Shown here: positions 31,596 through 34,852 of the stretch, one piece after another
Layout of the letters: each line of letters starts with the position of its first letter
Numbering within the stretch: the first letter of the stretch is position 1
NCBI GenBank assembly: GCA_964507115.1
Contig: CAZDOW010000001.1
Location: forward strand, 20,806-84,805
Length of the DNA: 64,000 nt
Direction of reading: 5' to 3'
From: an uncultured Maribacter sp.
GTDB lineage: Bacteria; Bacteroidota; Bacteroidia; Flavobacteriales; Flavobacteriaceae
Made by a program: the position numbers and the translations under genes
Notes under the pieces: model-generated
Database searches by the model: none
Seen by the model: only the letters and a program-made list of their open reading frames with translations
Told to the model about the DNA's origin: nothing

Positions 31596-32054
31596 TTAAA
31601 TCTTCTTAACACGAACGGCATTCATGCCCTTCATACCTCTCTCTAACTCGTAGGATACTTTGTCGTTTTCAAAAATCTCATCGATAAGACCGCTTACATG
31701 CACAAAGTATTTTTCATTGTTTTCCGTATCGATAATAAAACCAAAACCTTTGGAAGAATCGAAAAACGAAACTTTACCGCTTCGTACAGGGTTAAACTCC
31801 TCAACGTCTCCTTCTTCTTTTTTAGGAATTCCTAAAATGATATCCTCAGCTTCTATCTCTACCTTCATAGACGGATCTGGTGGTGTATCTACTAAGTTTC
31901 CATTGAAATCAACATAAGCCAATGGTATCCCAGAAGTTCCACTTTCCTTTACAGCAGCCTTCCTGGCAAGCATTTTTTTCTTTTTTTCCTCACGTTTTTT
32001 TAAACGCTTTTTTTCTTTTTCAGTTTTGTTAAATGTCTGTTGCGATTTTGCCAT
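31596..32054 (-). CDS. Cold-shock-domain protein with ~90-aa Lys-rich N-terminal extension
   Basis: The C-terminal CSD carries RNP1 KGFGFI and RNP2 YFVHV. The N-terminus reads KTEKEKKRLKKREEKKKKMLARK. Confidence 0.85.
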   Translation of the reverse strand: MAKSQQTFNKTEKEKKRLKKREEKKKKMLARKAAVKESGTSGIPLAYVDFNGNLVDTPPDPSMKVEIEAEDIILGIPKKEEGDVEEFNPVRSGKVSFFDSSKGFGFIIDTENNEKYFVHVSGLIDEIFENDKVSYELERGMKGMNAVRVKKI

Positions 32055-32206
32055 TCGTAATTTTAAATTTTTTTTAAATCAATGTTATATGGGAAATAGA
32101 CATAATTTGTTGACTTGTATCTAATGGAGAATTATAGTGGAGTACTATAAAATTATTCCATCTTAAGGTCATTGCAAGATTGTTCCGCATCCCTTTAAAA
32201 CGGTAA

Positions 32207-32214
32207 CAAAGATA
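32207..32214 (-). promoter_or_regulatory. Candidate -7 promoter box (TATCTTTG on minus strand) for the cold-shock-domain gene, implying a ~145-nt leader
   Basis: Plus-strand CAAAGATA is the reverse complement of TAnnTTTG. It is the only match to the consensus I found upstream of ATG 32054. Confidence 0.3.
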
Positions 32215-32901
32215 CATTATGTATTTGGATTTTGAGGTATAATCACTTGTAAGTATTGGTAAGTTTATCTTGATTTTGAGGCTGTCTAGTAAACGCTAAA
32301 GTAATTTTAGATAGCACTACCCTCAAACCAATCAATACTACTTTTTTTGATTCATAATCTAAACCTGTAACCAAAAAACTCATAGATTTTAAAAAAAAAT
32401 GTAGCCGACGATCTACGTAACACTACTAAAACAAAACATAACTAACTGAATAAAAGTATTTTAGATGTCTATCTACAAAGTGCAATGATTGCCTATTGTT
32501 AAATAAAGAACCTTTTAATACATAGTACTGTAACAAAATTTAAACTCTCTCGTCTTTTAAAAAATAGCACTAATTGCGAAACTTATAAATCAATCAATAA
32601 ACGAATAGATATGAGAATTTTTAACGGACAAACACCAACGGATTCTAGAAGACATTCTTTCTTTTCTGCTTCTAGAAATAGTAAAAGGCTACAATGGGTC
32701 GAAATTAGACAGCACAACCATCAAATTAACCTATAGCAATCAATTCATCAACTATCAAAAAAGAATAGCAGGAAAATAAAGCAGATTGGTATCCCAAAGT
32801 TTCTACACGATTTTAGCATTCTTCTGCATTTTAAAGGCAAAACCAAGTGTTTGTTGGACTAAACCAAAAGAACTTATTTTTAAGTAAGTAGAACTTTTAA
32901 A

Positions 32902-32940
32902 AAAATTGGGCTATGACTTCATCAATCATATCCCAATTTT
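32902..32940. terminator. Terminator-like interrupted hairpin inside the ORF-free region
   Basis: AAAATTGGG-C-TATGA-CTTCATCAA-TCATA-T-CCCAATTTT, i.e. 9+5 bp with one mismatch. It is flanked by an A-run on the left and a T-run on the right, so it is U-tailed on both strands (7 T on the minus strand). Confidence 0.35.
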
Positions 32941-33089
32941 ATATGAATAAATTCGTTTTTAATTTTTTATAAAAATTAATCTTTTCGCTCTTAAGGTAGT
33001 TTTATCGCTATGCTATCAGTACATGTAATTTTACGAAATTCTAATACTATCACTATACCTTTTTGTTTAGGAGTACTATAATTTTATAA

Positions 33090-33105
33090 AAATCGTATAC
33101 GATTT
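33090..33105. promoter_or_regulatory. Perfect 16-bp palindrome AAATCGTATACGATTT; candidate GntR-family operator
   Basis: Self-complementary with core GT-AT-AC. It lies immediately upstream of the TATCTTTA box (33108-33115) and 19 nt before the GntR ATG. Confidence 0.55.
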
Positions 33106-33107
33106 AG

Positions 33108-33115
33108 TATCTTTA
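33108..33115 (+). promoter_or_regulatory. Near-consensus -7 box TATCTTTA for the GntR gene
   Basis: 7 of 8 match to TAnnTTTG, 9 nt upstream of ATG 33124. Confidence 0.35.
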
Positions 33116-33123
33116 CATATATT

Positions 33124-33753
33124 ATGGCTAAAAAAATCAATTTAAGAGATCAGGTCAGGGACCACTTATTAAAAGAGATGACTACGGGGTCTTTAGAACT
33201 AGGGAAAACAATAAATTTAGCTGCGGTCTCCAGAGCACTGAACGTAAGTGTTACGCCTATTCGTGAAGCTTTGGCCCAATTGCAACAAGCTCGTATCATC
33301 AAAGCGGTACCCAACAGGGGTTTCATTATTGCCGAGTTGGATGTAAAGGAAGCTGAAGATTTATATGAATTAGTTGCCAGCTTAGAGGTAATGGCCATTG
33401 AAAATTCCGAATTTAGCGAAGAGCATATTATCGTTTTAAAACAACAACAAGAAGTATTTGAAAATGCACCGAATGCTATTTCTAGAATACAGGCCGATTT
33501 GGAATTTCACCGGTTACTAACCAAAGGTTTTGCAAACGATTTAGCACTTCAATTACTACTTGACCTAAAAACCAGGGTTTTCTTTTATGAGCGCGCCTTT
33601 ATGTCAGACGATTCTTTTTACAATAAATCAAATAACCAGCACGAAACCATTATTTCAGCAATTGCGGATGATAACGTCCCAACGGCTTCCCTCCTATTAA
33701 AAATGAACTGGATGCTAATTTTAAACTATATTCAGAAAAAACTAACGGAATAA
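33124..33753 (+). CDS. GntR family transcriptional regulator (FadR/FCD subfamily)
   Basis: Winged HTH (LAAVSRALNVSVTPIREALAQLQQARIIKAVPNRGFII) followed by an all-helical FCD-like C-terminal domain. Confidence 0.85.
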   Translation: MAKKINLRDQVRDHLLKEMTTGSLELGKTINLAAVSRALNVSVTPIREALAQLQQARIIKAVPNRGFIIAELDVKEAEDLYELVASLEVMAIENSEFSEEHIIVLKQQQEVFENAPNAISRIQADLEFHRLLTKGFANDLALQLLLDLKTRVFFYERAFMSDDSFYNKSNNQHETIISAIADDNVPTASLLLKMNWMLILNYIQKKLTE

Positions 33754-33760
33754 ACGAGGA

Positions 33761-34360
33761 CTACTTTAAATCCTCTAATAGTAAAGCCGCAGAATTCGTA
33801 ATCTTCTGATAACTTCTATAGCCCCATCTAGAGAAAAACAACGCCCCTATAAAGACGATCAAAAAACCTATCCATTGCTCTGCTTTTAAAGGTATTAAGA
33901 ATACATCTTTATCATCAAAAATTTTAGCAGTTGTTGGAATAATTAAAAACATCATTATAAAAGATAGCGTAATACTAATCTGCTGTAAGCGCAATAATCG
34001 GGTTTTTGACTTTGTATACCTCACTAAGTTTTCCTTGTATGTTCCCTTAAAAATATCGAAATCTTGAATTTGTTTTAAAGCGGAAAGCACTAATATGGGC
34101 ATTATAATTAGGAAGCCTAAACAAAGTGTACCACACGCCTGAAGATACCAAGTATCCAATTTGTTGAAATTAATTAAAATAAGCAGTGCTACTCCAAAAC
34201 ATACTACCGTCCCGGCCTTTTCGTAAGTACTTATTTTTCTAAACTTGTTCTTATACTTGGTACGTGTCATTTCCATTATTATGTTATTTGTAAGTTTCTT
34301 CTGTGTCTCTAGTTCTGCGCCCATTTGGGTCCAAGCTAGTTGTAGTTCTTCCAGTTCCAT
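33761..34360 (-). CDS. Membrane protein downstream of the ECF sigma factor (candidate anti-sigma / partner)
   Basis: 199 aa with a short cytoplasmic N-terminus and 4 TM helices. It starts 4 nt after the sigma-factor stop. Confidence 0.5.
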   Translation of the reverse strand: MELEELQLAWTQMGAELETQKKLTNNIIMEMTRTKYKNKFRKISTYEKAGTVVCFGVALLILINFNKLDTWYLQACGTLCLGFLIIMPILVLSALKQIQDFDIFKGTYKENLVRYTKSKTRLLRLQQISITLSFIMMFLIIPTTAKIFDDKDVFLIPLKAEQWIGFLIVFIGALFFSRWGYRSYQKITNSAALLLEDLK

Positions 34361-34363
34361 ATG

Positions 34364-34852
34364 CTACGGTTTAACTATGTTATTTTTTATTTTTATTTTA
34401 ATGCGGGAAATCCTGGTTCCCACATTTGAATCTGTTAAGCCTGTTATTTCAGCAATTTCACCATAACTTTTACCTTCTAATAACAAAAGCATAAGTCCTT
34501 TCTCCAAAGGATTTAGCTTTTGAATGTATTTGTAAATCCAGGTTAAACGCTCCTCATAAAGGTCATCTAGCGCATCTTCTCTTATCGTAACAGCTACTAC
34601 CAGTGAATCAGCACTAGGATGTTTTTTGGATTGTTTTAAGTAGGTAATGGCAGTGTTCATACCTACACGATACATCCAGGTAGTAACCTTAGATTCTCCT
34701 CTAAAAGAATCAAAACCCCGCCAAAGCTGATATACAATTTCCTGAAAGAGATCTTCACGATCCAAAGGGGAATTGGTATATACGGAAGCTACCTTAATGA
34801 GCAGTCCTTGATGTTCTTTTATCAAGTTTGTAAATTCTGTCTCGCTTGCCAT
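34364..34852 (-). CDS. RNA polymerase sigma-70 factor, ECF subfamily
   Basis: Region 2 (DREDLFQEIVYQLWRGFDSFRGESKVTTWMYRVGMNTAI) and region 4 HTH (SYGEIAEITGLTDSNVGTRISRIK). Confidence 0.9.
   Translation of the reverse strand: MASETEFTNLIKEHQGLLIKVASVYTNSPLDREDLFQEIVYQLWRGFDSFRGESKVTTWMYRVGMNTAITYLKQSKKHPSADSLVVAVTIREDALDDLYEERLTWIYKYIQKLNPLEKGLMLLLLEGKSYGEIAEITGLTDSNVGTRISRIKIKIKNNIVKP

Follow-up and report, generated by a model that had tools for sequence, protein, structure and literature searches.

A probable unannotated small-protein gene as the main content of a 1-kb intergenic gap between csp and gntR in a Maribacter genome

The window analyzed here is a 64,000-nucleotide stretch of DNA from an uncultured Maribacter sp. 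in which a csp-like gene (31596-32054, minus strand) and a GntR/FCD gene (33124-33753, plus strand) are transcribed away from each other. The gap between them spans 1069 nt (32055-33123), and both its coordinates and the lack of any ORF of 60 aa or more, as given in an earlier note on this DNA, are confirmed, the longest ORF inside it being 47 aa at most. With genes called by a simple ORF-based method, no other gap in the window is as large: the next measures 511 nt, the median is 48.5 nt and none but this one exceeds 800 nt. Its sequence is single-copy in the genome. The description of the gap as AT-rich holds against the window as a whole (27.9% GC compared with 36.8%) but the composition is ordinary for intergenic DNA here and unremarkable, because the remaining intergenic DNA of the window has a GC content of 29.1%.

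On the csp side the promoter is marked by a -7 box, TATCTTTG, at 32207-32214 (minus strand), which is of the TAnnTTTG type, the consensus of Bacteroidota sigma-A promoters, and each column of which is either invariant or conserved to 90% or more over 34 aligned loci. A start site near 32200, inferred from the -7 box, gives a 5' leader of ~145 nt to the ATG at 32054 (32055-32206, minus strand) that is conserved across Maribacter and near-invariant in the region 32161-32250. The proposal that the gap is a long regulatory leader of the cold-shock gene finds support only over its first ~150-200 nt (32055-32260), with the -7 box and conserved leader, and leaves the other ~800 nt unexplained. The neighboring csp resembles cspA-type genes with a long 5' UTR in that its promoter is conserved and its leader reaches this length, but the leader covers only ~15% of the gap and is without a demonstrable consensus structure, RNAalifold giving none over the 34 loci and core Maribacter showing only a weak local hairpin (-5 kcal/mol). 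The encoded protein also differs from CspA in having a 90-aa Lys-rich N-terminal extension. Beyond the csp promoter is an unconserved AT-rich spacer (32261-32493) separating two divergent promoters, with no ORF and no Rfam match, for which significant similarity to relatives was not found beyond the closest clade.

At the opposite end of the gap the 16-bp operator-like palindrome at 33090-33105, AAATCGTATACGATTT, is perfect, real and conserved among loci, with 92-100% identity in blastn. In 38 of 47 loci its core, ATCGTATACGAT, lies no more than 60 nt from the gntR ATG; seven of the other nine have a one-base variant of the core (ATCATATACGAT or ATCGTATATGAT). A -7-like box, TATCTTTA (33108-33115, plus strand), read from the sequence and conserved in close relatives, starts 2 nt after the palindrome. 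With its A/T flanks, its GT-N-AC core and its overlap with the regulator's own promoter region the palindrome fits a GntR/FadR-type operator, and AAATCGTATACGATTT is assigned as the putative autoregulatory operator of gntR.

Between these two ends lies a plus-strand ORF encoding 41 aa, MRIFNGQTPTDSRRHSFFSASRNSKRLQWVEIRQHNHQINL (32611-32736), recognized by codon-position statistics and six-frame profile matches. The earlier note had counted it as the longest ATG ORF with 44 codons (32611-32745), whereas it is composed of 41 codons and a stop. Maribacter small ORFs occupy the same csp–gntR locus as in the window, and relatives carry one to five copies in tandem, each with its own start and repeating every ~175 nt. 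The family consensus is 36-37 aa long (MRTFIRNTPTESRRNSFFSSFKNSKRVQWASSRNHTH), and in the window copy the ancestral stop has changed to CAA, adding four codons. The 5' UTR of the predicted mRNA (32555-32610, plus strand), delineated from the sequence and from relatives, is A/C-rich and without a Shine-Dalgarno sequence; AAAAACGAACATC is conserved ahead of the ATG. The 3' untranslated stretch between the ORF and the terminator described below (32737-32901, plus strand) is about one repeat period in length. A decayed second repeat unit in this stretch was ruled out, as 111 of 500 shuffles align equally well.

The ORF is preceded by a predicted ECF-sigma-type promoter, TGTAACAAAATTTAAACTCTCTCGTC (32529-32554, plus strand), defined by a genome motif scan and by relatives and formed by a -35 element GTAAC (32530-32534) and a -10 element CGTC (32551-32554) with a 16-nt spacer, all three matching the consensus exactly. 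The first copy of each small-ORF array is preceded by TGTAACAAA-N-CGTC with 16 nt from AAC to CGTC, and TGTAACAAAA-N-CGTC with exactly this distance is present in 41 of 44 arrays, the window included. The distance from CGTC to the ATG is 56 nt in the window compared with 45-51 nt in most relatives. Directly upstream an additional promoter element (32496-32528, plus strand), defined by the consensus in relatives, comprises TGTTAAA and, after it, a pair of ATAGTAC-type direct repeats. Of 44 first units, 41 have the consensus tTGTTAAAaATAGTACCTTTTtaTgCATAGTAC abutting the 5' side of the -35 element, and other genera carry it as well; in the window the distal repeat is degenerate (AAAGAAC, 32505-32511) and the proximal repeat is placed at 32522-32528.

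Downstream of the ORF the terminator-like hairpin at 32902-32940 is borne out by folding z-scores and by relatives as a candidate bidirectional intrinsic terminator, with an A-run on the 5' side, a T-run on the 3' side and consequently U-tracts on both strands (-13.3 kcal/mol, z = -3.9 for the plus strand; -16.9 kcal/mol, z = -4.3 for the minus strand). A simple terminator scanner made no call at this position because it requires at least three G-C pairs in an uninterrupted stem, and a scan of the gap for sigma-70-type promoters and terminators gave counts equal to those of shuffles, with models that represent neither Bacteroidota nor ECF promoters. In many Maribacter species a lipoprotein gene is resident at the csp–gntR position, convergent to the small ORF, and terminator-like sequences follow the last array unit and/or the 3' end of the lipoprotein gene in loci L074, L103, L115, L118 and L119. 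In the window a minus-strand segment at 32994-33068 (KQKGIVIVLEFRKITCTDSIAIKLP, followed by a stop) aligns with the conserved C-terminal motif of the relatives' lipoprotein, DKNGL.VLVDFGDGTCDDSA.ITYP, with 25.4 bits, a score that none of 60 shuffles reaches, and its strand and distance from the terminator are those expected for the lipoprotein gene. An intact copy of this gene was not found in the assembly, which is incomplete (~91%). This segment of ~75 nt is probably what remains of the 3' end of a lipoprotein gene since lost. The earlier suggestion that an inserted element had decayed here captured the decay but not its kind, as a resident gene would have been lost, leaving the terminator and the probable stub.

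The 12-nt direct repeat at both ends of the gap is exact but incidental, since 49 of 300 shuffles contain one as long or longer and relatives show no conservation of it, and on these grounds an insertion scar or conserved site was ruled out. A mobile-element footprint with a target-site duplication was likewise rejected, the repeat being within chance and the interior syntenic with relatives. The sequence ATAGTACT clusters in the gap, which contains three of the window's four copies, and two reverse copies are genome-specific.

A promoter motif common to the upstream region of a sigma gene and to its targets is a hallmark of ECF regulons. The motif found here has four sites genome-wide compared with 0-1 for a reversed control, and one of them lies 46 nt upstream of an ECF sigma gene of the window's own genome that matches the NCBIfam model NF058625 (239.7 bits, cutoff 130) and has anti-sigma-like and DUF4252 (GFO_1090) partners, the anti-sigma-like neighbor being 148 aa long. 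Across the genomes examined, 38-53 nt separate the motif from the GFO_1088/PG0214-family ECF sigma gene downstream of it; the motif is present at 10 of 10 Maribacter sigma-gene loci, the sigma-gene site is kept in 12 of 12 genera, and the pairing of promoter and small-ORF array recurs in other genera. As in autoregulated ECF regulons, the GTAAC-type -35, the CGTC -10 and the 16-nt spacer are common to the sigma gene and its candidate targets, and from this motif sharing and the logic of autoregulation we infer that the NF058625 sigma drives the small-ORF promoter. An ABC ATPase gene elsewhere in the genome bears the same motif. In a difference with the sigma gene of the autoregulated operon, the small-ORF promoters carry the extra ATAGTAC direct repeat, which is absent at the sigma gene's promoter and confined to small-ORF promoters, and to which a second regulator may bind. 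The sigma gene is found in 27 of 27 small-ORF-positive and 19 of 20 small-ORF-negative genomes (46 of 47) and, being near-universal, its co-occurrence with the small ORF does not discriminate. This sigma family is near-universal in the sampled Flavobacteriaceae, and Bacteroides thetaiotaomicron and P. gingivalis have it too. Another ECF sigma, encoded within the window itself (34364-34852), was rejected as regulator of the small ORF because the motif is absent upstream of its gene.

Several features of this genome bear on whether the window copy is a working gene. The alternative that survives best, although it is unlikely, is that the gap is decaying sequence made up of a dying single small-ORF copy, spacer and relics. 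The copy is single, with its stop displaced by four codons and the distal ATAGTAC repeat degenerate; drift of the -35 element and two disrupted ORFs are seen in the sister M. antarcticus clade, the relatives nearest to this genome in csp identity (G017, G007, G020 and G001) are without a small ORF at the locus, and the adjoining lipoprotein gene is already gone. Given the atypical copy, whose 5' UTR of 56 nt also departs from the usual ~47 nt, the drift in the sister clade and the relatives without the ORF, this copy could be disappearing. However, the ORF runs uninterrupted through its 41 codons, with a chance of ~3% for an open frame at such composition, the core promoter elements are those of the consensus without deviation, and a paralog with the same promoter is located on contig C109 of this genome.

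The family to which the window ORF is assigned is present in 59 of 61 Maribacter genomes and in 49 of the 49 of high quality, with 1-13 copies detected by a six-frame profile search. It occurs in 29 of 200 Flavobacteriaceae genera (~15%), and in an order-level sample all matches fell in Flavobacteriaceae genomes. Named Maribacter loci contain 66 distinct intact peptides, and the small ORFs of other genera are likewise 36-37 aa in length. Members are annotated only as a few "hypothetical protein" calls, and no Pfam or NCBIfam model matches the family. In the cultivable M. dokdonensis DSW-8, which has an array, two copies bear the locus tags I600_276 and I600_278. Searches of the PDB with the small protein, by sequence or profile and by fold, gave no relative, ribosome entries included, and word-based searching for homologues, with the peptide of the window as query, returned zero candidates. 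An exhaustive search of 1.84 billion representatives gave one true match; the top match, P0001, is a 52-aa perfect-repeat protein and is spurious. The proteins are very basic (pI ~12), hydrophilic and Cys-free, they are rich in Ser and Thr, and conservation is uniform along the peptide. A structure model is of moderate confidence, with a pLDDT of 72 and a pTM of 0.33. Recurrent neighbors of the arrays are a gene for a Lys-rich protein with a cold-shock domain and, in certain genera, an EF-G paralog.

RiPP precursors are typically encoded by arrays of short ORFs in several tandem copies, and the tandem short ORFs here, their cationic, Ser/Thr-rich peptides and the ABC ATPase gene with the same promoter motif would be compatible with precursors of a secreted or modified peptide, either a RiPP or a cationic antimicrobial. 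This reading is quite improbable, as the peptides contain no Cys and no signal or leader followed by a hypervariable core, being instead evenly conserved, and neither in Maribacter nor in 16 arrays from other genera is a modifying enzyme, protease or exporter a consistent neighbor.

The pattern of variation among the copies separates a coding from a non-coding origin of the conserved block. Codon-position entropies are 0.38/0.30/0.85, so that third positions vary most, and among single-base codon differences 71% are synonymous in frame compared with 7% and 10% off-frame. The ATG, the length and the stop are retained in 43 of 46 copies (36-37 aa), the length of 37 codons is fixed in the family, and all frames other than the coding frame contain stops. 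These statistics show a family under purifying selection and indicate that the ORF at 32611-32736 is a real gene and the main content of the csp–gntR gap. The gap as a whole is probably a compound intergenic region built around this unannotated small-protein gene.

The earlier note had proposed unannotated sRNAs, and the block is indeed short, intergenic and tandem and has its own promoter and terminator, while both the unit and the spacers have some capacity to form local stems. That it is a non-coding sRNA or tandem sRNA family with an incidental open frame is nevertheless very improbable, slightly more so than the peptide-precursor reading, in view of the third-position variation, the excess of synonymous differences and the retained start, stop and length; the sole conserved block is thus protein-coding by codon statistics. 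An Rfam scan of the gap at permissive E-values gave best scores of 14-24 bits compared with gathering thresholds of 37-60 (E 0.3-4), with no family near threshold, and a tRNA and tmRNA search of the gap found none. The 9-bp inverted repeat noted before is present but incidental: the in-ORF stem is merely formed by Arg-Arg codons opposite Phe-Phe codons and its 9-bp form is specific to this genome, for which reason a conserved RNA element was rejected. The hairpin of the array spacer is weak and missing from several species. The small-ORF transcript could still be a dual-function mRNA. A regulatory leader peptide acting as an attenuator for a downstream gene, to which the short ORF, its upstream promoter and the downstream hairpin might point, is hardly credible, as no same-strand gene lies before the terminator, the next gene in relatives is convergent, the amino acid sequence is conserved over its full length across genera and tandem complete units misfit an attenuator.

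With the small-protein gene as the preferred reading, the Maribacter family resembles other unannotated bacterial small proteins (<50 aa) that Ribo-seq or genome comparison has uncovered, in that it escaped gene callers because of its length and is recognized by conservation of start, stop and codon pattern. Most described bacterial small proteins are hydrophobic membrane peptides or products of single-copy genes, whereas this family is hydrophilic, polycationic, usually tandem and confined to a subset of Flavobacteriaceae. The function suggested for it is a guess from composition. Speculatively, the product would be a soluble polycationic two-helix protein binding a polyanion (RNA, ribosome or DNA) under stress, and the recurrent csp and EF-G paralog neighbors hint at a role in translation. 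The SRA protein (RpsV/S22) of E. coli is a 45-aa basic, stationary-phase, sigma-S-dependent ribosome-associated protein. Both proteins are tiny, strongly basic and soluble and have an alternative stress-sigma promoter, predicted in the case of Maribacter, making SRA a reasonable functional analogue for binding of a polyanionic machine at times of stress. SRA, however, has no sequence similarity to the Maribacter protein, is single-copy and not tandem, and depends on another sigma class; an association of the Maribacter protein with the ribosome is pure conjecture.

In the mechanism proposed, envelope or oxidative-type stress would release the ECF sigma from its anti-sigma partner, and the freed sigma would transcribe the small gene or array, with the transcript terminating at the hairpin at 32902-32940; the ATAGTAC direct repeat abutting the -35 element would add a second layer of control. 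More broadly, these 36-37-aa polycationic proteins of marine Flavobacteriaceae might be stress effectors of a class not recognized before, amplified via tandem arrays, induced by the GFO_1088/PG0214-type ECF sigma and acting on ribosomes or nucleic acids, a possibility that is doubtful at present. We know of no regulon defined for this sigma family, and to our knowledge a tandem array of tiny basic proteins has not been described before as its conserved target. The P. gingivalis papers report only changes of the PG0214-0218 cluster in mutant and nitric-oxide-stress transcriptomes (PMC11018363).

For annotation, what appeared as an empty 1-kb gap is here one gene together with the remnants of a lost one. 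Small proteins are systematically overlooked, and the conserved family described here spans dozens of marine flavobacterial genera with up to 13 copies per genome. The small gene is a concrete candidate regulon member for the GFO_1088/PG0214 ECF sigma family with its DUF4252 partner, and the motif TGTAACAAA-N-CGTC, with 16 nt from AAC to CGTC, may be used for predicting the sigma regulon elsewhere. If the stress-effector proposal is true, this type of sigma, widespread in Bacteroidota, would gain its first defined target.

The divergent genes csp (31596-32054, minus strand), encoding a cold-shock-domain protein with PF00313 at residues 92-151 preceded by a Lys-rich N terminus, and gntR (33124-33753, plus strand), encoding a GntR/FCD regulator, are separated by 1069 nt. 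The 1.07-kb gap described in the earlier note is confirmed, its coordinates agreeing and its longest ORF being no more than 47 aa (none of 60 aa or more), and it exceeds every other gap in the window when genes are called simply from ORFs (runner-up 511 nt, median 48.5 nt). Records matched by the csp flank include M. arcticus, M. antarcticus and many further Maribacter. Its GC content of 27.9% is close to the 29.1% of the remaining intergenic DNA of the window, so that the AT-richness is ordinary for non-coding DNA here. The gap sequence occurs once in the genome, one 49-nt piece excepted, and the gap is large across Maribacter (853 to ~2,500 nt, with a few loci bigger). Comparison of the locus with 40 relatives shows three conserved parts, comprising ~200 nt by csp, ~30 nt by gntR and a central block (~32494-32776); the spacer 32261-32493 is unconserved. 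The csp protein carries an N-terminal Lys/Glu-rich extension of ~90 aa, an architecture kept with 76-95% identity in Maribacter, Croceitalea, Saonia, Muriicola, Spongiimicrobium and Aggregatimonas.

In many relatives the central block is repeated in tandem (2-5 copies, one every ~175 nt), invariably in the gntR orientation. All units begin with ATG and almost all stop 37 codons on, with 43 of 46 copies giving a 36-37-aa peptide (consensus MRTFIRNTPTESRRNSFFSSFKNSKRVQWASSRNHTH). The window has a single 41-codon small ORF (32611-32736, plus strand; MRIFNGQTPTDSRRHSFFSASRNSKRLQWVEIRQHNHQINL), in which the ancestral TAA is now CAA and the frame runs four codons longer. Across 38 distinct intact units the column entropy is 0.38, 0.30 and 0.85 at codon positions 1, 2 and 3, the synonymous share of single-base codon differences is 71% in frame compared with 7% and 10% in the two alternative frames, and stops are present in every other frame. 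The codon-position entropy and the in-frame synonymous excess argue for translation under purifying selection and identify the central block as a predicted small-protein gene. An unannotated sRNA, as proposed for the gap, is dismissed on this protein-coding signature of the conserved block and on an Rfam search of the gap, which gave no match. A 9-bp inverted repeat noted earlier is present inside the small ORF but is an outlier peculiar to this genome (-10.5 kcal/mol, where the remaining units mostly give -3 to -7). The short stem common to the units is formed by Arg-Arg codons (AGAAGA) opposite Phe-Phe codons (TTCTTT). The inter-unit spacers are A/C-rich with CATCAATCA-like repeats and end in a conserved AAAAACGAACATC right before the ATG. 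A weak hairpin of 4-6 bp is found in many of the spacers, its pairing retained despite varying stem sequence; because several species have none, it is regarded as optional.

Searched with a six-frame profile, 59 of 61 Maribacter genomes carry the ORF (1-13 copies each; 49/49 of the high-quality genomes), as do 29 of 200 sampled Flavobacteriaceae genera, most with tandem arrays; matches in an order-wide sample are confined to Flavobacteriaceae genomes. A paralogous type (MKAS..TESKTGQYFSSF..SKRAQWAQYRNFNR) with the same core motif is carried by other genera and also by contig C109 of this genome. Neither Pfam nor NCBIfam has a model for the family, the PDB contains no relative by profile or by fold, and 1.84 billion representative proteins yield one true match, its start over-extended. 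Exact look-ups return a few records termed hypothetical protein, e.g. M. dokdonensis I600_276 and I600_278 and M. litoralis WP_159304015.1. The top-scoring representative (P0001) is rejected as a homologue, being a spurious predicted repeat protein of 1477 aa with 28 perfect 52-aa repeats, and its E-value of 6e-44 against the 41-aa query arises because weak repeat matches are summed. Such matches are a trap for searches using short basic queries.

A promoter sequence, TGTAACAAAATTTAAACTCTCTCGTC (32529-32554), is placed 5' of the single unit in the window and likewise 5' of the first unit in arrays. The main finding is a predicted small-protein gene family that is unannotated, conserved and linked to an ECF-type promoter. 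The motif TGTAACAAAW-N12-15-CGTC has four sites genome-wide compared with 0-1 in a reversed control, preceding the window small ORF, the C109 paralog, an ABC ATPase gene and, 46 nt upstream, an ECF sigma gene. The latter belongs to NCBIfam NF058625 ("GFO_1088 family ECF-type sigma factor", sigma_PG0214; 239.7 bits, cutoff 130) and has downstream of it genes for an anti-sigma-like protein of 148 aa and a DUF4252/GFO_1090 protein. An ECF sigma factor usually drives expression of its own operon through the kind of promoter that it recognises, which makes the NF058625 sigma a candidate regulator of the small-ORF promoter. In Maribacter 41 of 44 arrays have the motif, with exactly 16 nt from AAC to CGTC and usually an interval of 45-51 nt between CGTC and ATG, and the sigma-gene promoters are identical to these in -35, -10 and spacing. 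The sigma-gene motif is kept in 12/12 genera examined, and the promoter-array pairing in other genera is canonical in 8 of 14 cases, with three more showing near variants or a longer leader. The NF058625 sigma is present in 27/27 small-ORF-positive genomes tested and also in 19/20 negative ones, so that co-occurrence holds but is non-discriminating. In the searchable literature PG0214-0218 figure only as an ECF sigma with hypothetical proteins that show expression shifts in mutant and nitric-oxide-stress transcriptomes (PMC11018363).

An upstream element, TGTTAAA-ATAGTACC-N10-ATAGTAC, abuts the -35 of small-ORF promoters, is absent from the sigma gene and could be bound by a second regulator. 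The second small-ORF locus of this genome (C109:9545-9630) has an identical extended promoter (…CATAGTACTGTAACAAAATATATCTTTGTGCGTC) and, 58 nt past it, ATGAAAGCATCAAGTAACAGAAC (MKASSNR…) of the paralogous type, which the contig end cuts off. On contig C45 (16620-16645) the motif lies 5' of the TTG-start ABC transporter ATPase gene (LEHILTVKNLTKKFGY…), and this site is shared by at least three further genomes of Maribacter (L042, L052, L058), so the gene is probably a further regulon member. The ECF sigma gene of the window itself (162 aa, 34364-34852) forms with a gene for a 199-aa membrane protein that may act as an anti-sigma factor a minus-strand pair (33761-34852) convergent with gntR; this sigma is rejected as the small-ORF regulator, the lack of a TGTAAC…CGTC motif upstream marking a separate ECF system. 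A 12-nt direct repeat reported at the ends of the gap is present, but repeats at least this long turn up in 49 of 300 shuffles, and the 12-mer is not conserved. Its reverse complement contains the promoter-element word ATAGTACT, found four times in the 64-kb window, three of them inside the gap (32139-32150, 32522-32529 and 33070-33081). The promoter-proximal copy alone is kept in relatives and the two reverse copies form the genome-specific 12-mer repeat, the clustering being a genome-specific curiosity.

The window copy retains an intact promoter core and ORF; it is single, with a shifted stop and a degenerate distal repeat in the upstream element. In the M. antarcticus sister clade (L071, L072, L073, L146), nearest to the window, the -35 has changed to TTTACC and two of the ORFs are disrupted (an M. 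antarcticus copy without ATG and a MAG copy with an in-frame stop), which looks like pseudogenisation underway. The small ORF of the window is likely to be functional.

In many Maribacter species a minus-strand gene for a ~260-aa lipoprotein lies between the array and gntR and converges with the array. Lipoprotein gene and array each occur alone in some species, the presence of the gene at csp-gntR loci (e.g. L074, L075, L078, L087) being independent of the array across species. The protein termini are characteristic (N-terminal …SCS(T/N)D…, C-terminal …DFGDGTCD…ITYPNG…). The gene is missing from the csp-gntR locus of the window, and no intact copy was found elsewhere in the assembly, which is incomplete (~91%). 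A minus-strand segment at 32994-33068 (KQKGIVIVLEFRKITCTDSIAIKLP*) scores 25.4 bits against the conserved C-terminal motif, a score reached by 0/60 shuffles, and is a probable 3' relic of the lost gene. The suggestion of a decayed inserted element holds in so far as a relic is present, but the gene concerned is the lipoprotein gene resident at the locus in relatives. Just downstream of the relic on the minus strand lies the hairpin noted earlier (32902-32940), for which stable folding is predicted on either strand (z = -3.9 and -4.3), with U-tracts each side. It resembles the sequences of relatives just past the last array unit and/or the lipoprotein 3' end, which accounts for a terminator that seemed to serve no gene, and it is predicted to end the small-ORF transcript and formerly the lipoprotein transcript too.

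The proposal of a csp regulatory leader holds in part. A -7 box (TATCTTTG, 32207-32214, minus strand) is almost invariant and together with the conserved leader implies a 5' UTR of ~145 nt, in which no consensus structure is demonstrable; the main content of the gap is, however, the predicted small-protein gene. By gntR, the palindrome AAATCGTATACGATTT (33090-33105) is kept in 38 of 47 loci with a one-base variant in 7 of the 9 others, consistent with an autoregulatory operator.

The small peptide has a pI of ~12 (Lys+Arg 7-8 compared with Asp+Glu 1-2; GRAVY -1.1 to -1.5) and lacks both Cys and any hydrophobic segment. AlphaFold2, supplied with 40 aligned sequences, models it as a two-helix hairpin with moderate confidence (pLDDT 72). 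At 16 array loci in other genera there is no constant neighbour and no modifying enzyme or exporter nearby; recurring neighbours are the same lipoprotein family (3/16), csp (2/16) and an EF-G-like GTPase paralog (3/16; 701 aa, at L181, L187 and L188). The last may hint weakly at a link to translation or may be no more than shared synteny. The searchable literature yielded nothing on the small proteins. From composition alone, a stress-induced soluble polycation binding RNA, ribosomes or DNA is a tentative suggestion, with E. coli SRA as the proposed functional analogue. The protein family is new, and its general kind is known, that of small stress-regulon proteins overlooked by annotation.
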